NCBI GenBank assembly: GCA_045642565.1
Contig: JAZUJE010000008.1
Coordinates: 38,223-62,222, forward strand
Source: Anaerovoracaceae bacterium
Lineage (GTDB): Bacteria > Bacillota > Clostridia > Peptostreptococcales > Anaerovoracaceae
Length of the DNA: 24,000 nucleotides
Reading direction: 5' to 3'
The notes beneath the pieces were generated by a model that was given only the letters and a program-made list of their open reading frames with translations, was not told the origin of the DNA and made no database searches. The number at the start of each line of letters is the position of its first letter. The stretch's first letter is position 1. Shown piece after piece: positions 1 to 8,514 of the stretch. The translations under genes were made by a program, and so were the position numbers.

Positions 1-1299
1 GTGAAACAACGTATGTCTATTGTTGTGCAAATGGTTATAGCAATTTTCCATCTTGGCAATCTTATCTTGCGGTATCCCTCCTGCAAGCTCCGGCTTGAAT
101 CTGTACACTCCTGAATCAAATGTAAACATATTGAAATTATAAGATTGCATACTAATTCCACACTTTGTAAGGTTGTACTTAAGTACACCTTCTAACGCCC
201 GTAATGCAGGGAATGTAAACATAGAAAATTCAGTGTCATTTCTCGCAGGATTATTTAGATTTATTATTGCCTGTTTTAGCAAGGTTACTATATTTTGAGG
301 AAGAGCTTCTTGAGAGATAGTCGGTAATTTACTGTTGTAATCATCATCAACTCTAACTTTGTTTATTGAAATGCCATATGCGCTTTTCAAAACTTGAATA
401 AAGTCTCCACATTGAAGAGTCTCTACAACACCGGTTGTAATAATTTGAAACAGATTATTCTTTTTACCTTGGACAGTCATTTTTATATCATTAAATAACG
501 TAATTTGAGTCTTTTCTTTTCCAAATGTCAATGACCAACTTTTTTTATTTCCGGTTTTAGCCTTAGACAATTCAATTCCTTGACATTCTTCTTGAAGTTT
601 AACAAGCAGATCATCTATGTTTTTTTCATTAACAGGACTAATAATATAACCAGAATTTCCATCTAAATCACGAATTACTTTATTCTCAAATATAGCGCTT
701 TTTGCAAGTTTATCGGCCCTATCGTTGTACTTGTTGTTCGAGTGGCCACTTACTTTTACGAATTCTATAGAAATAATGCCGGATTTATCATCAATGTATC
801 TTTTGTAATAACTTGTTAATGATGTTTTTGCCTGCCATTCACCAGAAGCCCATTTTCCTATACCTTCATAATCATAAAACACTGTCATATTGTCAAAGCC
901 ATTTTTCCATGACCAATCCACTGCATTCATAACAGCTATTATTTCGCCAGCAACATTACGAAGCTCAATATATTTTTCGTTTTTTCCGATATTACATAGT
1001 TCCACATACACATCAGATGGTGCAAATAAACACACTCCAGATCCATACGCTTTTTTCCCCGCATCAAAACTACCATCCGTAAAAGCTACAACTTTACCTT
1101 TTTCAATACGAGGCAACACATCATTATTCATTACTATATCTATATCGTTTAAAAAAGCTTCTGCCTCTTCGACAGATTCAAAGCTTTTGTATATGGCTCC
1201 TGAATAACCTTCAATTGCAGTTTTGCACTCTTCCCATGATTTAAATATGCCAGTACGAAGGCCTTGCTTAACAGCATATATTTTTACTTTACTTCCCAT
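1..1299 (-). CDS. RNase H1 (hybrid-binding domain + RNase H domain) fused to an RnlA/LsoA-like repeat domain and HEPN (Rx4H) domain; C-terminus cut by window edge
   Basis: Absent from the ORF track because it runs off the window. My own minus-strand translation from ATG 1299-1297 gives 433 codons with no stop down to base 1. RBS AGAGGAG lies at 1308-1314, 8 nt upstream, inside the end of the previous gene. The N-terminus KIYAVKQGLRTGIFKSWEECKTAIEGYSGAIYKSFESVEEAEAFL is an RNase H1/viroplasmin-type hybrid-binding domain. The DEDD set is present in the usual contexts: FTDGS (D75), NVAGEIIA (E119), FYDYEG (D143), NDRADKLAK (D196). KSWSLTFGKEKTQITLFNDIKMTVQGKK resembles the RnlA/RNase HIII TBP-like repeat. 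The C-terminus FPALRALEG...NNRHTLFH carries Rx4H (R428-H433, bases 18-1). Confidence 0.8.
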   Translation of the reverse strand, partial: MGSKVKIYAVKQGLRTGIFKSWEECKTAIEGYSGAIYKSFESVEEAEAFLNDIDIVMNNDVLPRIEKGKVVAFTDGSFDAGKKAYGSGVCLFAPSDVYVELCNIGKNEKYIELRNVAGEIIAVMNAVDWSWKNGFDNMTVFYDYEGIGKWASGEWQAKTSLTSYYKRYIDDKSGIISIEFVKVSGHSNNKYNDRADKLAKSAIFENKVIRDLDGNSGYIISPVNEKNIDDLLVKLQEECQGIELSKAKTGNKKSWSLTFGKEKTQITLFNDIKMTVQGKKNNLFQIITTGVVETLQCGDFIQVLKSAYGISINKVRVDDDYNSKLPTISQEALPQNIVTLLKQAIINLNNPARNDTEFSMFTFPALRALEGVLKYNLTKCGISMQSYNFNMFTFDSGVYRFKPELAGGIPQDKIAKMENCYNHLHNNRHTLFH

Positions 1300-1301
1300 A
1301 T

Positions 1302-2456
1302 CTATTTCTCCTCTGCAATGCTTGCCTTTTTGTTAGACTTCATTTCTTCCTCAGAAAATCCATTCTCTACAATTATTCTATACGCATCAATTATTGTTCC
1401 TGCGATTTCTCCAATTCTGTTTTCGACCTGATTGATATCTGCCAAGTTAATAATAGAATCGTTTTGAGCGGGATCCGAATGAAGTTCATGACATCGAATG
1501 CTTTCCCATGTAGTAGCAAGTTTATCTGATACAAATTCATTTCGACGTACATCACGTATGTATTTTTCGAGCTTCTTTTTTCTCAATGCATTGCCTATGT
1601 CAGCAATCTCAGGATTACTCTTATATGCATCAAATGTAAAAAATTCTTTTTCAATCAATAATTTAATTACAAATCCTTCGAAAACTTTTGCAAAGGGATA
1701 TAGTATCGGATTGTAGAGTGGTATGTTTAGGTTATTTTCTTTCACCACTTTTAATATTCCTATAGCGCTAATAAGTGTATCTTGGTCATTTTTATAAAGG
1801 AACGAAAAAGCCTGCTTTGATATTCTTTCTTCGGCTAATAAACGTATTTCTTTAAACTCATCTGCTGAAGCTAACATTGCCTTTTGTACTTCATTTTTAT
1901 TCTTTTTTGGTACATAAAGCATTGAATTTTCAATATTACTAAGAGGATTAATACTTTTAATTATTCCCAACACTTCTGTGAAAAGCAAAGAGGATTGACC
2001 TTGTAGCAATAGTGTTCCAGTTTTGTATTGTGTAATAGTAAACTTTTCATTTTTGTTTTGCAGTTGTATACGATAAAACTGCGTTGAATTCGTTTCAAAT
2101 AATGAATAATCTTCAAAGTGGTTGATAATAGCATTTTTTATTTTCTCTATTTTTTCTTCGCTATCTATCTTAATTGAGGTATGTATCTGTATCGTTTTTT
2201 GAGGAATACCATGAGTTTCTTTTTCTTCACCAAAACATTCCACAAGTTTAGGAGTTTCCTTCTCGAAAACAATTTTAGATGATATTTCTCCCTTAAAATA
2301 AACAATTATTGAATATTCATCTCCACTTATCTTATAACCATATCCGTTATTAATTATTTTTTCCTGTTTAATGGGAAAAGAATTTTGTTCCAAAATATTT
2401 CTTATTTTTTGAATTGCGAATTCCTTTTGATATTTAAAATCCACACTTTGTCCCAT
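1302..2456 (-). CDS. RnlA/LsoA-family HEPN RNase toxin-like protein (NTD + repeat domain + HEPN domain)
   Basis: The ORF track gives 1302..2474 from a TTG. I prefer ATG 2456-2454 (MGQSVDF...), which has a GAGGAAG RBS at 2464-2470, 7 nt upstream. It has two TBP-like modules, including FTITQYKTGTLLLQGQ, the signature shared by RnlA/LsoA and the RNase HIII N-domain. The C-terminal helical domain has YPFAKVFEG and SIRCHELH (Rx4H; R at 1494-1496, H at 1479-1481), matching the RnlA Rx4H arrangement. Confidence 0.7.
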   Translation of the reverse strand: MGQSVDFKYQKEFAIQKIRNILEQNSFPIKQEKIINNGYGYKISGDEYSIIVYFKGEISSKIVFEKETPKLVECFGEEKETHGIPQKTIQIHTSIKIDSEEKIEKIKNAIINHFEDYSLFETNSTQFYRIQLQNKNEKFTITQYKTGTLLLQGQSSLLFTEVLGIIKSINPLSNIENSMLYVPKKNKNEVQKAMLASADEFKEIRLLAEERISKQAFSFLYKNDQDTLISAIGILKVVKENNLNIPLYNPILYPFAKVFEGFVIKLLIEKEFFTFDAYKSNPEIADIGNALRKKKLEKYIRDVRRNEFVSDKLATTWESIRCHELHSDPAQNDSIINLADINQVENRIGEIAGTIIDAYRIIVENGFSEEEMKSNKKASIAEEK

Positions 2457-2470
2457 GCCAGTACTTCCTC

Positions 2471-3367
2471 TCAATTCTCGTTATATGATCTATCAATTAG
2501 TGGCTTGGCTTTTTCAAAATCAGCCTTATTATGTATTATGACTTCAACATCACCGGTTGCCCAATGACCGATTTTAGAGGTATCTCTGGTAAAACCTTCT
2601 TCATAATCAATAGTAGTTACATCAAGCCGGAGATGCAAAAGCAACCTGTTATTGAAAACCTCTACGCAAACAAAATTCTTGATTTTCTTAAATGCCGTAT
2701 AGAGTTTCAAACTGTTTTCGCTGATGTCATCGCCAAGACTCAGAATATAATTTCGGAGATCATCATATAACGTTTTTATCTCAAGCTTTGCATTTTTGTA
2801 TTGCTCAGCAAAAGATTTATCTTTCGTCTGCTTTGCGGCAGGCACAACATCATTGTCTGGAATTGCATCTGCAATGTTTTCATTGACCTGCTCAAACATA
2901 AGCAAATCATCACCAAACTTTTTATATCTGATCAGGCTGATGTTTCGATTCATTTGCTTGATAGCAGATTCGTCATACTTTGTGAAATCGCCGGCGACAC
3001 ATACTACGCGAGGCATGGTCCAGTCAATGCTGTCAGCTTCTTTTAAACCAAGCTTTTCTATCACAAGCACCTTGAAGCTATCTTTGTGATCTAACAACCA
3101 GTTGAGATAAAAGAGACCTTGGTTAATGACATTCTCTTTCATGGAACGCTTGTACTCAAAAATGACAGGGCAATGGTTTTCATCAATACCTATGCTGTCC
3201 ATACGACCACCGTCTGTTGTTCGGTATTCCGACGCAAGAAATGTTACGCCAAAGAAAGTGGTCATGTTATTTTCAATGACAGTTTGCAGTTCTTTTTCAA
3301 GAGTTACTGTACCGCTCTGATATTCCGTAACAGTTCCTTTTATGTTGAATAATTTAATGTCAGCCAT
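2471..3367 (-). CDS. PD-(D/E)XK nuclease (NucS/DUF91-like N-terminal domain) with DUF5655-like C-terminal domain
   Basis: 298-aa ORF with RBS AAGGAAGG upstream of ATG 3367. The N-terminal core GRMDSIGIDENHCPVIFEYKR fits D...E-x-K of the restriction-endonuclease fold. The tail ...LHLRLDVTTIDYEEGFTRDTSKIGHWATGDVEVII resembles DUF5655. Family names are from memory. Confidence 0.6.
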   Translation of the reverse strand: MADIKLFNIKGTVTEYQSGTVTLEKELQTVIENNMTTFFGVTFLASEYRTTDGGRMDSIGIDENHCPVIFEYKRSMKENVINQGLFYLNWLLDHKDSFKVLVIEKLGLKEADSIDWTMPRVVCVAGDFTKYDESAIKQMNRNISLIRYKKFGDDLLMFEQVNENIADAIPDNDVVPAAKQTKDKSFAEQYKNAKLEIKTLYDDLRNYILSLGDDISENSLKLYTAFKKIKNFVCVEVFNNRLLLHLRLDVTTIDYEEGFTRDTSKIGHWATGDVEVIIHNKADFEKAKPLIDRSYNEN

Positions 3368-3382
3368 AATAAACCGCCTTCC

Positions 3383-3595
3383 TTAATTCTTCTTATCGGG
3401 TACAAAATCCATGATATCGTTTGGTTCCACCTCAAGGGCAGCACAAATCGCACCGATGACGTCGGTGGTGATATCTTTATCGTTGGCAAGCTTGTACATC
3501 TGATAGTGGGTGATGCCAGCGGCTTCTTCCAGATCCTTTTTCTTCATGTTTCTGTCAACAAGGATGTGCCACAATTTCTTATAACTAACAGCCAT
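3383..3595 (-). CDS. XRE/Cro-C1 family helix-turn-helix transcriptional regulator
   Basis: 70-aa ORF with RBS AAAGGAG upstream. KKDLEEAAGITHYQMYKLANDKDITTDVIGAICAALEVEPNDIMDF is a typical short HTH_XRE protein. It is the first gene of the four-gene operon. Confidence 0.85.
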   Translation of the reverse strand: MAVSYKKLWHILVDRNMKKKDLEEAAGITHYQMYKLANDKDITTDVIGAICAALEVEPNDIMDFVPDKKN

Positions 3596-3636
3596 TTTGA
3601 ATCTCCTTTATGAGCTATTTGGCGCTGGATACAATA

Positions 3637-3675
3637 ATACTAATATAGTATATCACAGTTCGACTGGAAAATCAA
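3637..3675 (-). promoter_or_regulatory. Sigma-A type promoter of the XRE-led operon with an overlapping palindromic operator
   Basis: On the minus strand: TTGATT (3675-3670), a 17-nt spacer, then TGaTATACT extended -10 (TATACT = 3652-3647). The palindrome ATACTA-n3-TAGTAT at 3637-3651 overlaps the -10, consistent with autoregulation. Confidence 0.45.
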
Positions 3676-3745
3676 GAATATGATAAGAATTTCAAACTTT
3701 CGACAAGAAAAATAATGATCTGTTTGAAAGAATCAGAAGAGCAAT

Positions 3746-3807
3746 TTGCCGCTATCGGCAAAAACATTCGATGTTTTTACCAACTTTTTTTCGAATTTTG
3801 CCGATAG
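3746..3807. repeat. Inverted-repeat set: palindrome TTGCCG-CTAT-CGGCAA plus a 12-bp perfect inverted repeat
   Basis: The palindrome is at 3746-3761. CTATCGGCAAAA (3752-3763) is the exact reverse complement of TTTTGCCGATAG (3796-3807), with a 32-nt spacer. The two structures are mutually exclusive. Confidence 0.5.
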
Positions 3808-3810
3808 AAC

Positions 3811-3846
3811 AGAAAAATCCGGCCCTGCCGTATGGCAGAGCCGGAT
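3811..3846 (-). terminator. Rho-independent terminator downstream of the 3888-4193 gene
   Basis: GC-rich hairpin ATCCGGCcCTGCC-GTAT-GGCAGaGCCGGAT at 3817-3846. On the minus strand it is followed by TTTTTCT (3817-3811), about 40 nt after the stop. Confidence 0.7.
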
Positions 3847-3887
3847 CGTGGTTTCAATAAGGGCTGAAAGCCCGTCATTCAAAGAAG

Positions 3888-4193
3888 TTATATCTCGTCT
3901 TTTAGGTAGTCCGCGTAGGGTGCTTTCGTGGTAACGAAGGTATCGAAAGCGAATTGTGCTCCAAGGCGGAAGCCGGTGATGAAACTGTCGAGGGTAGATT
4001 CGCCGTTGACGGATGCCCAGGCATCGACATATTGAAGGAAGCGTTTCTTTTCCTCGCCGGAGAGTTTGTCCGTGAGGAAATCTTCGCTTTCGTTCAGCGT
4101 CTGCATATCTCGCTGCACCTTTTTGTTCTGCTCGGAGCTTCGCGCCTGCGGATCGATATTGCCGTAGTAAAACTCTTCGATAAAACTATTCAT
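3888..4193 (-). CDS. Small conserved hypothetical protein (FYYGNIxP motif) of the kind carried by Clostridia integrative/conjugative elements
   Basis: 101-aa ORF with strong RBS AAGGAG 7 nt upstream and its own terminator. It sits in a locally GC-richer block. The family is recalled only loosely, so no name is assigned. Confidence 0.55.
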   Translation of the reverse strand: MNSFIEEFYYGNIDPQARSSEQNKKVQRDMQTLNESEDFLTDKLSGEEKKRFLQYVDAWASVNGESTLDSFITGFRLGAQFAFDTFVTTKAPYADYLKDEI

Positions 4194-4220
4194 GGCAGTT
4201 TCTCCTTAAATTTAGTGAGA

Positions 4221-4255
4221 AACCCGTGCGTCCATGCCTTAAAAATGTAGTATTT
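4221..4255. repeat. Copy A of a ~35-nt dispersed repeat (promoter-like region upstream of the 3888-4193 gene)
   Basis: AACCCGTGCGTCCATGCCTTAAAAATGTAGTATTT aligns with 8610-8645 at about 30 of 36 columns, in the same orientation. Confidence 0.6.
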
Positions 4256-4310
4256 TCAATAGTTTTTGTTCGCGTTCTCTCAGGTAAGTTCTACCCTTTA
4301 TGACCAATTA

Positions 4311-4375
4311 GGAAGATACAAGACGATATGGGAAGTTATAGGTCGTTATGGGAAGATACAGGAAGATAAGGGAAC
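4311..4375 (+). repeat. Iteron-like array of GGAAG(A/T)TA motifs in helical phase
   Basis: GGAAGATACA at 4311, GGAAGTTATA at 4331, GGAAGATACA at 4351, GGAAGATAAG at 4361 and GGAAC at 4371. It can also be read as about 3 copies of a degenerate 20-mer (..CGATATGGGAAGTTATAGGT / CGTTATGGGAAGATACAGGA..). Confidence 0.55.
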
Positions 4376-4522
4376 ACTTTTTGATGCAAAAGCACCGAAG
4401 TTCAAGTCCGTTATTCACGCCCGACCAGATTGCACAATGAAAAAGCTCAATAATATTGTCCAAAACGGATATAATGATAACGAAATCACGTTTTGAAATT
4501 CAACGAATGTGTTTAATAATAA

Positions 4523-4551
4523 TTAACAAATGTCTTTAAATGTGCTATCAT
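4523..4551 (+). promoter_or_regulatory. Putative sigma-A promoter for the ATPase gene
   Basis: TTAACA (4523-4528), a 17-nt spacer, then TGcTATCAT (-10 at 4546-4551). It lies 35 nt upstream of the GAGGTG RBS and ATG 4586. Confidence 0.45.
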
Positions 4552-4585
4552 ACTGTCATAGAAAAGCATAAGTAGAGGTGCTAAT

Positions 4586-5866
4586 ATGGACTATAAAAAG
4601 CGAATTGTCGATAATTTACTCGATTTGAAATTGGAATCATTTGGTGCCACCTTGATAAAAGGTCCCAAAGGATGCGGCAAAACCACATCTGCAAAGCAAA
4701 AAGCAAAAAGTTATGTGGAATTTCAAGATGAAGAAGTGCGCGATAATTTGTTGGCAGTTGCTGAAACTGCTCCCAAAAAACTTTTGATTGGTGAAAAGCC
4801 ACGCCTTTTTGACGAATGGCAGGATGCACCGAAACTTTGGGGAACAATTCGCAAGGATATTGACGACAGCGGTGAAAACGGGCAATATATTCTGACGGGT
4901 TCATCCTCCAAAGACGTCAAAGTTGCGCATACCGGAACGCTCCGTATCAGCCAGTTACAGATGTATCCAATGAGCTTATACGAAAGTGAAGAATCAAACG
5001 GTACGGTTTCCTTGCTTGATCTTTTTGATAACCCCGACTCGTTTGACGGTTGCGAATCAAACCTAACAATAGACGATTTAATTTTTGCTATTTGCAGAGG
5101 AGGATGGCCTCGTGGACTTTTGAACAAAACGCCCCGCTCCAAATTGGAAATTGCAAAAGACTTATTCAAGCAGACTTATTCAGTGGACATTTCTAACATT
5201 GACGGCAAAAAGCGCAACGCCAGATGTGCTCAAGCAATCCTGCAATCTTATAGCCGCAATATCTGCACTTTGGCAGAATCGAAAACGATCATAGGAGATG
5301 TGCAGGCAAATTATGATGTCAGTCCGGCTACCATTTATGACTATATACATGCCCTTGAAAAGTTGTATATTATCGAGGATGTAGAAGCGTGGTGTCCGGC
5401 GATTCGTTCCAAGAGCAATCTCCGTTCTTCACAAAAGAGAAATCTGATCGACCCGTCTGTTGCCGTCGCTGCGCTTGGTCTGTCTCCAGATTATTTCAAC
5501 ACCGATTTCAAGACGCTCGGCTTCTTATTTGAATCGCTTTGCATTCGGGATTTGAAAATCTATTCTTCCGCTTTTGACGGAAAAATGTCCTATTATCATG
5601 ACCGATACGGATTGGAGGCAGATGGTGTTTTGCACCTGAACGACGGCAGATATGCTCTACTTGAATTCAAACTCGGCTCCAAAGAAATTGAAATGGGTGC
5701 AAAGCATTTGTGCGATATTGAAAAACTGATCAAAGAATACAACAAAAAAGAAAACCAGTGTCCGCTTCGGATTCCGGATTTGAAAATAGTTATCACCGGC
5801 GGACAGTACGGATATAAACGCGAGGACGGAGTGTTTGTTATCCCGATCGGATGTTTGAAAAATTGA
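4586..5866 (+). CDS. AAA_14-type ATPase with C-terminal DUF4143 (PD-(D/E)XK-like) domain
   Basis: 426 aa. Walker A is GPKGCGKTT and Walker B-like is LFDEWQ, followed by YILTGSS. The C-terminal GLEADGVLHL...ALLEFKLG fits the D/E-x-K pattern typical of DUF4143. Confidence 0.85.
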   Translation: MDYKKRIVDNLLDLKLESFGATLIKGPKGCGKTTSAKQKAKSYVEFQDEEVRDNLLAVAETAPKKLLIGEKPRLFDEWQDAPKLWGTIRKDIDDSGENGQYILTGSSSKDVKVAHTGTLRISQLQMYPMSLYESEESNGTVSLLDLFDNPDSFDGCESNLTIDDLIFAICRGGWPRGLLNKTPRSKLEIAKDLFKQTYSVDISNIDGKKRNARCAQAILQSYSRNICTLAESKTIIGDVQANYDVSPATIYDYIHALEKLYIIEDVEAWCPAIRSKSNLRSSQKRNLIDPSVAVAALGLSPDYFNTDFKTLGFLFESLCIRDLKIYSSAFDGKMSYYHDRYGLEADGVLHLNDGRYALLEFKLGSKEIEMGAKHLCDIEKLIKEYNKKENQCPLRIPDLKIVITGGQYGYKREDGVFVIPIGCLKN

Positions 5867-6003
5867 AAACTGCTTGATTCGGTCATGGCAAACTCTGCTT
5901 ATTATGAATTACTTTTTTCTGTGCACCACTTGAGCCCCAACGTTTCTCGACAATAGTTAAAATTACAAAAATATAGCAATCACAATCAATAGGAGCAATT
6001 AAA

Positions 6004-7695
6004 ATGTTAGATGCAAAAAGACTTTTGGAATTCGAATATTTTCCGAGCGAATTACCCGAGTGCTTTACTTCAAAAGGATTAGCACAACATTATTCGGAAA
6101 TAAAAGGCCAAATTAATTCTCATTCATTTCCTTCATCACTTCCCTTGGAGTTTTCAATTTACAAAGGGGAAAACTCACGGCGAAGAATGGCGTTGCCGAA
6201 TCCAATTCATTATTTCAAAATTGTAGATTTGTTGGTCGAAAACGAAAGGGACTTATTTGATCTCTTTGAAAAAAGTGATTATTCGCTAACAAAGCCTTCG
6301 ACCGATCAAAGCGATACACAAAAAAGAGCATATAATAGGGTGTCAAACAATCCTATGCAAACAAGACTTATCAATGAGAAAAATTTTTGCGATAATACCA
6401 TTTGTATAAAATTAGATATAAGTAATTTTTTTGATAGCATTTATACTCATTCGATTTCATGGGCCATACATACAAAAAATGTGGCTAAACAAAAAACAGG
6501 CGATAAAACGCTTTTGGGCAACAAGATTGATAAAGCGTTACAAGAACTTAATTACGACCAAACACATGGGATATTGGTCGGCAATGCAGTTTCAAGAATC
6601 ATTTCTGAAATAATACTTTGTAAAATTGATGCTGAAATAAAAGTAGCATTTCCTAATATAAAAATGTGTCGTTTTGTTGACGATTATTCTTTTTACATCA
6701 AAGAAAATGAGTCGCCAAACGCCATTATTTCTTTTGTTCGCAATCGTTTGTTAGAATATGATTTGGTACTAAATGAAGCAAAAACAAAATTATATAACGC
6801 TCCATTTGTTTTAGAGCGAAGTGGAATAGATGAAATTAAAGCGATAAATACACATGATGCCTATACCTACTATAACAGACTTATAATCATGTTTGACAAA
6901 TACAAAGATTTATCCTTGTTAAAATATGGATTGTCAATATTATCACCAATCATAAATGATAGAAGCTTTCACACGGTATTTCCGCTTTTAAATAATTTAT
7001 GGGTTACATATCCTTCCTTAGCCGAAAAAATCTTGCCGATTTTTTATTCAAAAAAAGATTTGTTTGATTCAAAAGAAAAAAATGTTTTTAAAACATCATT
7101 ATGCTCAATAATTAATTTAGGCATTCAATACCGTCAAGAAGCAGAAACCATTTGGGCAGTTTGGGGAATGACTCTGTTTGATTTTAATTTTAATCAGAGA
7201 TTATTTGAAAACTTATGCACATCCAATAATGACTTGGCAATAATTATTGCAGCAGTTTATATGAAAAAATATGGTTATAAGTATTATGATGAAGTTATAA
7301 ATGAATTGGTCAAACGAATTACAGACGAATCGATCGATTCTTCCCCCAAAAACAGAAAAGATATATATTTTCCACATTGGTTGTTGATATATGAGCTTAC
7401 CAAGAAAAACATAGTCTGCAACACAACCTTTCAAAGTGTCAAAACTGATCCATTTTTCAAAAAAATATATGATTTAGATGTAGATTTCTATGATTGCAAT
7501 ATAGTACCGAATGCCAATGAGAAGGTTAAAGTAAAAGCAAAAATGAGCGAAATGGACAAGCAGAATTTGTCTGTATTGCTCGAGATGATTGTACCGGAAA
7601 AAATGTCAAATAACGAAAAAATAAAAGAAATAGTTGAGAGAATTAACAGCATTGTTTTTGATAGCGACGAAAATTGGGTTTATGATATACCGTAA
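6004..7695 (+). CDS. Abi/UG-type (defence-associated, non-retron, non-intron) reverse transcriptase with long helical C-terminal domain
   Basis: 563 aa with RBS AGGAG. RT motifs: RRRMALPNPIHY; IKLDISNFFDSIYTHSISWA (motif A, D138); HGILVGNAVSRIISEI (motif B); RFVDDYSF (motif C, DD at 6679-6684); LVLNEAKTKL (motif D/E). About 280 aa of helical tail follows, as in the AbiA/AbiK/UG classes. The subclass cannot be assigned by eye. Confidence 0.85.
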   Translation: MLDAKRLLEFEYFPSELPECFTSKGLAQHYSEIKGQINSHSFPSSLPLEFSIYKGENSRRRMALPNPIHYFKIVDLLVENERDLFDLFEKSDYSLTKPSTDQSDTQKRAYNRVSNNPMQTRLINEKNFCDNTICIKLDISNFFDSIYTHSISWAIHTKNVAKQKTGDKTLLGNKIDKALQELNYDQTHGILVGNAVSRIISEIILCKIDAEIKVAFPNIKMCRFVDDYSFYIKENESPNAIISFVRNRLLEYDLVLNEAKTKLYNAPFVLERSGIDEIKAINTHDAYTYYNRLIIMFDKYKDLSLLKYGLSILSPIINDRSFHTVFPLLNNLWVTYPSLAEKILPIFYSKKDLFDSKEKNVFKTSLCSIINLGIQYRQEAETIWAVWGMTLFDFNFNQRLFENLCTSNNDLAIIIAAVYMKKYGYKYYDEVINELVKRITDESIDSSPKNRKDIYFPHWLLIYELTKKNIVCNTTFQSVKTDPFFKKIYDLDVDFYDCNIVPNANEKVKVKAKMSEMDKQNLSVLLEMIVPEKMSNNEKIKEIVERINSIVFDSDENWVYDIP

Positions 7696-7869: not shown

Positions 7870-8514
7870 ATGTTAAACAAATATTTTAGAATGGATGGAA
7901 ATAATAGTCTTGATTTTATGTATGCAAACATTGCAGTAAAAAATATATATTTTGCGTTAATCTCATTGGACTATATCTTTGATTCCGACAAGTATAATAT
8001 TGGTGTCTACCATGATGAACACACATATTACTTTTTCCACATTCAAAGTTTGCTAACTGCTTGCGGAAATATAGCTAATGTTTTTTATAATCTGGGTGTT
8101 CATAATGGACGTCGATCAACCGAACGTTGCCGAAGACTGCGTAATACATTCAATATAAGCAAGGGCATGTATCAACTTGTTTTTCAAAAAGAAGCACGCA
8201 ATACGAACGAGCACTTTGACGAACGTTATGAAGAATTCGGCGGAAATTTGGGAGACTATAATTTGTTAGACCATGATACAGATGCATATATGAGAGCTGT
8301 AATACAAACCAATCCTCATTTAAGAACATATGACATAGAGAATCATATATATCATACATTCATTCGCAGATCGGGAAGATTTGAACGATTTGAGTACAAC
8401 TTAATAGAATTACGACGAGAATTAGAGCGAATGCGTGATAGCATAATCGATAATCCAGTTTTTTCTTCTGCTTGGGTAGAAGAAATGCCAATAGAACAAG
8501 TCGAGAGACATTAA
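7870..8514 (+). CDS. Small HEPN-like (Rx4H) protein, putative RNase effector partner of the RT
   Basis: 214-aa helical-looking protein. It has a single EARNTNEHFDER motif (R110 at 8197-8199, H115 at 8212-8214) with the polar Asn after Arg that is common in Abi-type HEPN domains. It is on the same strand as the RT and 174 nt downstream. The call rests on one motif plus context. Confidence 0.5.
   Translation: MLNKYFRMDGNNSLDFMYANIAVKNIYFALISLDYIFDSDKYNIGVYHDEHTYYFFHIQSLLTACGNIANVFYNLGVHNGRRSTERCRRLRNTFNISKGMYQLVFQKEARNTNEHFDERYEEFGGNLGDYNLLDHDTDAYMRAVIQTNPHLRTYDIENHIYHTFIRRSGRFERFEYNLIELRRELERMRDSIIDNPVFSSAWVEEMPIEQVERH

Follow-up and report, generated by a model that had tools for sequence, protein, structure and literature searches.

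What does a bacterium gain from a protein that joins a type 1 RNase H to the toxin half of an RnlA-like ribonuclease? We address this question for an Anaerovoracaceae bacterium, in a 24,000-nucleotide stretch of contig JAZUJE010000008.1 (hereafter the window), whose first 1,299 nucleotides encode such a fusion on the minus strand. We consider it likely that this open reading frame (ORF), in a genome of low-GC, gut Clostridia-like character, encodes the toxin component of a type II toxin-antitoxin and abortive-infection module of the RnlA-RnlB kind. The frame begins with an ATG at base 1299, is stop-free for 433 codons down to base 1 and runs past the window edge, leaving its C-terminal ~38 codons beyond base 1. 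Because it runs off the edge, it is absent from the program-made ORF list, which is the explanation that the first-pass annotation had offered. A GAGGAG ribosome-binding site lies 8 nt upstream of the ATG, inside the 3′ end of the upstream gene (1302-2456). The fusion and its parts are as follows.

1..1299, minus strand: predicted HBD–RNase H1–TBP–HEPN (RnlA-family) toxin, N-terminal 433 of ~471 codons
1153..1284, minus strand: hybrid-binding domain (HBD; Cauli_VI / RNase H1 N-terminal domain), aa 6-49, Pfam PF01693 (1.4e-18)
691..1095, minus strand: RNase H type 1 catalytic domain, aa 69-203, Pfam PF00075 RNase_H (1.7e-6)
1075-1077, 943-945, 871-873, 742-744 and 712-714, minus strand: RNase H catalytic codons D75, E119, D143, H186 and D196, respectively
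412..660, minus strand: single TBP-like domain, equivalent to RnlA NRD/TBP2, aa 214-296
1..402, minus strand: RnlA/LsoA-type HEPN domain, cut by the window edge, aa 300-433
190-201, minus strand: HEPN R367/E370 (RALEG), corresponding to RnlA R255/E258
18-1, minus strand: HEPN R428-x4-H433 (RHTLFH, aa 428-433), corresponding to RnlA R318/H323

The N-terminal HBD and RNase H domains, first read from the letters alone, were recovered both by sequence (Pfam and a PDB search) and by fold (AlphaFold2 and Foldseek). The RNase_H match scored 28.7 bits against a gathering cut-off of 25.8. In the PDB sequence search (phmmer), the best match was 2kq2, an "RNase H-related protein" (8e-21), and the HBD matched those of yeast and human RNase H1 (1qhk, 9e-12; 3bsu, 7e-7). 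The same search returned E. coli RnlA (7aex, 6y2p and 4i8o; 4e-10 to 9e-10) and LsoA (2e-8). The alignment with RnlA begins at RnlA residue 122 and pairs RALEG with R255/E258 and NRHTLFH with R318/H323, four residues that are experimentally essential in the E. coli toxin (PMC8266594). Pfam RnlA-toxin_DBD (PF19034) was matched over its cut-off at aa 317-433 (1.1e-12), and RnlA_toxin (the NRD, PF15935) under its cut-off at aa 218-293 (4.8e-4). The N-terminal TBP1/NTD domain of RnlA (PF19417) had no match in the fusion, in which HBD and RNase H fill the N-terminus. The initial statement that these domains replace the RnlA N-terminal domain holds as a description of layout, with HBD-RNase H standing where TBP1 would be, but not as a direction of evolution.

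Fold comparisons were made with an AlphaFold2 model of P0001, an intact 471-aa protein that is 97% identical to the window protein and occurs in 88 blocks of our contig index (pLDDT 90, pTM 0.84). Its top Foldseek match was RnlAΔ1-91 (7aex; E 5e-14, TM 0.72), with full-length RnlA and LsoA also matched; RNase HI/H1 enzymes came next (TM 0.7-0.85). The TBP-like β-α-β4-α unit of the model superposes within 7aex, and the C-terminal domain models as the HEPN domain of RnlA. Sequence and fold agree that a single TBP/NRD repeat and an Rx4H HEPN domain are retained, as had been proposed.

Conservation was counted over 114 aligned full-length homologues, with identity down to 34%. The DEDD residues D75, E119, D143 and D196, which the first-pass annotation had placed correctly, and H186 were each conserved in at least 113 of the 114. 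When a hidden Markov model (HMM) of this RNase H domain family was aligned with E. coli RNase HI, whose sequence was checked against the known residue numbering, E119, H186 and D196 corresponded to E48, H124 and D134; the F-T-D-G-S motif that holds D10 in the E. coli enzyme holds D75 here. On the HEPN side, R428 was found in all 114 proteins, H433 in 113 and E370 in 110, while the R367 position holds arginine in 91 and lysine in 20 (111/114). In the HBD, Y8 and W22 are invariant and K38 is present in 106/114; we take the aromatic and lysine contacts of this domain to map to human W43 and K59, after Nowotny et al. 2008. Since both active sites are near-invariant, the sequences favour a two-headed nuclease, RNase H plus HEPN, over a dead adaptor. 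Nothing that the first-pass annotation had named as refuting its reading came to light: the C-terminal domain models as HEPN, the DEDD set is conserved and the close homologues are intact.

A database search with the window protein gave 518 relatives at E ≤ 0.001, of which the full-length ones are ~470 aa. The hosts are mostly Bacillota (Clostridia, Negativicutes, Mollicutes and Bacilli), with scattered matches in Fusobacterium, in deltaproteobacterial, Dehalococcoidales and cyanobacterial metagenome-assembled genomes (MAGs) and in one archaeal MAG. The distribution is sporadic and includes plasmids, prophages and defence islands. Several proteins depart from the standard length. Proteins of ~409 aa (L061, L071, L077, L086, L095 and L101; about 5000-6224) match the fusion profile at positions 4-427, are shorter than the fusion and have no adjoining rnlB; they may represent a different HBD-RNase H-TBP architecture with the HEPN end reduced or missing. 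Longer variants of 570-625 aa, with internal extra sequence, occur on IMG/VR viral contigs (L160, L165, L167-L169 and L177) and retain the downstream rnlB. Within the window gene itself, the plus-strand ORFs at 173-298 and 890-1207 were dismissed as short antisense ORFs in a conserved gene, and a terminator-like site at 1176-1160 was set aside as lying within the coding region and being no more than chance would give.

The company that the fusion keeps carries the second part of the argument. Among 185,579 species-representative genomes, the best 80 loci were surveyed, and 45 of them carry an intact fusion. The antitoxin gene rnlB lies directly 3′ of it in 40 of these 45 (42 had room for rnlB), and likewise in all 14 of a separate set of intact fusions on IMG/VR viral contigs. 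On the six contigs that encode P0001 (L001-L006), rnlB starts 10 nt downstream of the fusion and specifies a 121-aa RnlB (PF15933, 1.3e-14); a gene for a 417-aa protein with TPRs and a cold-shock domain (CSD; PF00313, 5.5e-10) comes next, and then a type I restriction-modification (R-M) system. From the rnlB adjacency in the surveyed loci we conclude that the window gene belongs to a genuine RnlAB-type module. The left flank of L001-L006 is variable (BREX, arginine genes and others), as would be expected of a mobile defence block. A seeming absence of rnlB from the lineage of P0110 was rejected, as an intact RnlB frame with no ATG, GTG or TTG start is present there (hmmsearch, 3e-45). The rnlB frame at L021:6392-6743 is intact (3e-45) with none of these starts and was missed by gene callers; it may use a non-canonical start codon or be weakly translated.

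The first-pass annotation had called the fusion Rosetta-stone support for a partnership between RNase H and RnlA, and this point has grown stronger. Plasmids of Lactococcus and Carnobacterium carry RNase H, rnlA and rnlB as separate adjacent genes, which RefSeq annotates accordingly. The Lactococcus lactis plasmid pHJ218 (L231, NZ_CP129880.1), for example, carries at 2992-5396 an HBD-RNase H of 306 aa, a three-domain RnlA of 356 aa and RnlB. The split HBD-RNase H has an intact DEDD set and ~100 C-terminal residues without assignment. This split system has an abortive-infection gene and the gene for a type I R-M S subunit as neighbours. A Priestia plasmid has the fused form, annotated as a "viroplasmin family protein", beside an annotated RnlB antitoxin. 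Fused, adjacent and, in the case of E. coli rnhA, unlinked, this series is a classic Rosetta-stone pattern, and parallel fusions to RNase HIII, described below, add to it.

The E. coli work to which the first-pass annotation had pointed exists. Naka et al. 2017 (PMC5308261) found that RNase HI associates with the NRD of RnlA, stimulates RnlA and is needed for its neutralization by RnlB; direct contact between RnlA and RNase HI was not seen in vitro, and the relationship was described as "not well understood". E. coli RnlA is a HEPN endoribonuclease whose canonical HEPN dimer is bound by the labile RnlB, keeping the toxin inactive, and its TBP1 domain is required for substrate binding (PMC8266594). 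By analogy, we propose that in the uninfected cell RnlB would clamp the canonical HEPN dimer of the fusion, as in E. coli. Upon infection, RnlB would be lost or displaced, with the TPR-CSD protein possibly serving as a sensor or regulator, and the HEPN dimer, freed of RnlB, would cleave mRNA. The HBD-RNase H module would stand in for the substrate-anchoring TBP1 and provide in cis the functions for which E. coli RnlA depends on host RNase HI in trans. The RNase H domain of the fusion directly precedes the NRD-equivalent domain, and in this position it could act as an activator and as a platform for RnlB recruitment. The module probably also steers the toxin to RNA:DNA hybrids and cuts them, candidates in replicating phage DNA being R-loops, primers and transcription bubbles. 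Such hybrids may be the trigger or the substrate, as the first-pass annotation had suggested.

Several points weigh against this reading. The last 38 codons of the fusion, rnlB and the TPR-CSD gene lie outside the window and are placed there from contigs with the 97%-identical protein. The Pfam matches to RnlA_toxin (NRD) and HEPN_RnaseLS are below the gathering score, so that the RnlA assignment is based on RnlA-toxin_DBD, the PDB sequence matches and the fold. Our literature searches turned up no experiments with a protein of the fused family. Finally, the E. coli data do not show that catalysis by RNase HI, as opposed to binding, matters for RnlA (PMC5308261).

The fusion is the fourth gene of a tightly packed minus-strand operon, and the gene before it bears on how far the module extends.

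1302..2456, minus strand: second RnlA-like paralogue (TBP1-TBP2-HEPN), 384 aa with the ATG at 2456 as start, 390 aa with the TTG at 2474

The stop codon of this paralogue lies 2 nt before the fusion ATG, and the two genes are translationally coupled. Although barely recognized by Pfam, the paralogue was modelled with a pLDDT of 87, and its sole significant PDB matches were to E. coli RnlA over the full TBP1-TBP2-HEPN length. It carries K263, E266-G267 and R327-x4-H332, of which E266-G267 and R327-x4-H332 are invariant in its family, and profile-profile comparison relates this family to that of the fusion with 95% probability. Together, the matches of the model, the profile comparison and the invariant motifs identify gene 1302-2456 as a second RnlA-like toxin paralogue.

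Most relatives of this paralogue (among P0135-P0192, L007 and L112-L149) are ~615 aa long and end in a C-terminal RNase HIII catalytic domain (PF01351, 2e-32; TIGR00716, the NCBIfam rnhC model, 203.7 bits against a cut-off of 161.2). They are annotated in their sources simply as "ribonuclease HIII". These long forms have a TPR-CSD gene directly 3′ and no rnlB, and their TPR partner matches the PADLOC model PDLC01170, "TPR fused to cold shock-like OB" (1e-51). BLASTP between the 416-aa long-form partner and the 417-aa TPR-CSD protein was not significant; their homology showed only in their common TPR and OB annotation and in an iterated HMM, which was built from the long-form partner and recovered the TPR-CSD partners of the fusion with a single exception. 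TPR plus cold-shock/OB proteins of ~415-450 aa are thus recurrent partners, encoded 3′ of rnlB in a subset of fusion loci and directly 3′ of the long forms (TPR-CSD genes at L001:11791-13044, L007:7868-9118, L015:6801-8057 and L021:6743-8047). In the window clade, every short form on a sufficiently long contig leads into the fusion, rnlB and the TPR-CSD gene (L001-006, L011-012, L104-109 and L111). Other short forms stand alone (L119) or are split from the RNase HIII domain (L126). Two unrelated types of RNase H have thus each been joined to RnlA-like HEPN modules that have a common TPR-OB partner.

These observations give their weight to the alternative that the fusion is part of a larger conflict system resembling TOTE, in which the tandem RnlA paralogues cooperate, possibly by forming a HEPN heterodimer, and are controlled by the TPR-CSD protein. 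The RNase H1–RnlA–RnlB cassette would functionally replace the RNase HIII domain of the long-form paralogues. The constant gene order of the window-clade short forms, the position of the long forms directly before a homologous TPR-CSD gene, the HMM recovery of the fusion's TPR-CSD partners and the existence of a Pfam family TBP-TOTE (PF22721) all speak for it. Against it, PF22721 has no match in the window proteins, and most fusions occur with rnlB alone: in the species-representative genomes, a TPR-CSD gene is nearby in 8/45 and the short paralogue in 0/45. The fusion and RnlB are therefore self-sufficient in most lineages, and we regard the larger system as a serious but less likely possibility. 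A combined scenario, which we find somewhat more doubtful, is that an RNase H1–RnlA–RnlB cassette was inserted between the TOTE genes for a TBP-TBP-HEPN-RNase HIII effector and a TPR-CSD protein. In this scenario, the RNase HIII domain would have disappeared from the effector, the two paralogues would assemble into a heteromeric HEPN nuclease, and type 1 and type 2 RNases H would be interchangeable for hybrid recognition. Were this so, the sensing or cleavage of hybrids would be the conserved core of the whole RnlA/TOTE superfamily, and there would be a mechanistic account of why E. coli RnlA needs host RNase HI.

It is improbable, in our view, that the RNase H module is instead a non-catalytic adaptor, a docking and activation platform for RnlB and HEPN in which hybrid cleavage would be irrelevant to defence. 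Such a role agrees with the known effects of RNase HI in E. coli, namely NRD binding, RnlB recruitment and stimulation of RnlA, for which PMC5308261 reports no requirement for catalysis. In contrast, DEDD plus His and the HBD residues Y8, W22 and K38 are almost invariant in the 114 homologues, and these residues are conserved in the split Lactococcus RNase H as well; near-invariance of this kind is unexpected for a purely structural domain. It is hardly credible that the gene serves as a housekeeping RNase H1 whose C-terminal extension is decorative, or that it is a remnant left by truncation or pseudogenization: relatives are annotated as "ribonuclease HI" or "ribonuclease H family protein" and the ORF is cut by the window edge, but rnlB adjacency is near-universal, the HEPN catalytic residues are conserved, the distribution on plasmids, prophages and defence islands is sporadic, all 433 window codons are open and the 97%-identical homologues are intact.

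Upstream of the two RnlA-like genes, the operon and its surroundings are composed as follows.

2471..3367, minus strand: DUF5655 / NucS-like protein with a NucS-like N-terminus, PADLOC candidate PDC-S18 (1.5e-132)
3383..3595, minus strand: HTH_26 (Cro/C1-type) regulator, first gene of the operon, kept upstream of the cassette in other lineages
3647..3675, minus strand: promoter-like site 5′ of the HTH gene, with a TG-extended -10, a consensus match only
3816-3847, minus strand: strong intrinsic-terminator-like hairpin, 14-bp stem with 9 G-C pairs and a T-rich tail
3888-4193, minus strand: DUF6809 gene, at one cassette edge
4586-5866, plus strand: AAA_14 + DUF4143 ATPase, PADLOC candidate PDC-S01 (9.8e-47), divergent from the RnlA operon
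6004-7695, plus strand: defence-associated reverse transcriptase (DRT), PADLOC Drt6 (7.6e-108) and Drt4 (2.9e-100), also AbiK-like
7870-8514, plus strand: 214-aa ORF without a family match, 3′ of the reverse transcriptase gene

The DUF5655 gene, which lies between the HTH gene and the RnlA-like paralogue, occurs there in this lineage only and is absent from the cassettes of L011 and L104-L111; it is probably a separate accessory defence gene. The hairpin at 3816-3847 terminates the DUF6809 gene, and the promoter-like site of the operon follows shortly after it. DUF6809 genes mark the cassette edge in several otherwise different contexts (also L001:7144-7449 and L011:10760-11038) and adjoin a TnpV gene in L011; the gene may be part of a mobile element that carries the block. 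The 214-aa ORF could encode a partner or effector of the reverse transcriptase, and the GC content falls to ~0.30 around these two genes. With the BREX and type I R-M genes carried by the sister contigs, these neighbours place the RnlA operon in a defence island. PADLOC has no model for the fusion, its upstream paralogue or RnlB.

The first-pass annotation had implied that the fusion was new, and in this it was mistaken. Fusion architecture, RnlB partner and the hypothesis of hybrid targeting have been known since the work of Anantharaman, Makarova, Burroughs, Koonin and Aravind (2013, Biol Direct 8:15; PMC3710099), whose passages on the RNase LS family describe an RNase H–RNase LS HEPN architecture. 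In a table of that article, the family is listed as fused to RNase H "along with Caulimovirus viroplasmin domain" and in an operon with RnlB, other members having a TBP-like domain. The text places an N-terminal RNase H module on the RNase LS HEPN "in most cases" and proposes, as its target, the RNA strand of DNA-RNA duplexes that arise when viruses replicate or are transcribed. What the window adds is one more family member and a conserved four-gene context; the tandem-paralogue and RNase HIII-exchange context may or may not be covered by the description of TOTE. For the pairing of HEPN with RNase HIII, our literature search found only PMC3710099, which in its passages on this family discusses the TBP-like domain alone.

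The two E. coli papers (PMC5308261 and PMC8266594) make no mention of RNase H–RnlA fusions, which suggests that the link between the fusions and the E. coli question is under-used. Natural fusions offer a tractable single-polypeptide model for the interplay of RNase HI and RnlA. Fusions, split operons and RNase HIII fusions also argue that the partnership of RNase H with RnlA is ancient and general and not a quirk of E. coli.

Of the known systems, the fusions in PMC3710099 have exactly the architecture of the window protein, and nothing essential differs from what the relevant passages of that article set out. Theirs is purely computational work, and those passages neither connect the fusion with the RNase HI results obtained later in E. 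coli nor describe the tandem paralogue arrangement. E. coli RnlA-RnlB and plasmid-borne LsoA-LsoB resemble the fusion in TBP2/NRD and HEPN (E 4e-10, and by fold), in the equivalents of R255, E258, R318 and H323, and in having rnlB immediately 3′, as the fusion loci do. They are anti-phage toxin-antitoxin systems whose function depends on RNase H, and an equivalent role is predicted for the fusion. E. coli RnlA has the layout TBP1-TBP2-HEPN and relies on host RNase HI in trans, whereas the fusion has HBD and RNase H1 in cis in place of TBP1. Identity between the two is ~19%, and the fusion locus adds the TPR-CSD protein and a second paralogue.

Type 1 RNases H with an HBD (eukaryotic RNase H1, Bacillus halodurans RNase H and 2KQ2) have in common with the window protein the HBD, the RNase H fold, DEDD and the histidine. 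Those are stand-alone housekeeping or R-loop enzymes, whereas the window version makes up the N-terminal half of a predicted toxin. RNase HIII, composed of a TBP-like N-domain and an RNase HII-type catalytic domain, is approached from the other side: the TBP domains of RnlA resemble its N-domain, and a bona fide RNase HIII catalytic domain, which the window copy does not have, forms the C-terminus of the upstream paralogue's relatives. Unlike RNase HIII, the long forms place HEPN between the TBP domains and the catalytic domain.

TOTE systems (Aravind, Iyer, Burroughs 2022), as they are presented in PMC12458937, are operons of TPR-OB, TBP-domain and effector genes, the effectors "often" having RNase H. 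PF22721 had no match to the window proteins at E ≤ 10, though TBP-like domains are present by fold, and matched the Lactococcus RnlA weakly (0.0034). Most RNase H–RnlA fusions differ from TOTE in having no TPR-OB gene. The operon of the sister contigs, by comparison, is like TOTE as so described in its TPR–cold-shock (OB) protein, its TBP-domain proteins and its nuclease effectors, RNase H included, and its TPR-CSD partner seems to correspond to the TPR-OB member of such systems.

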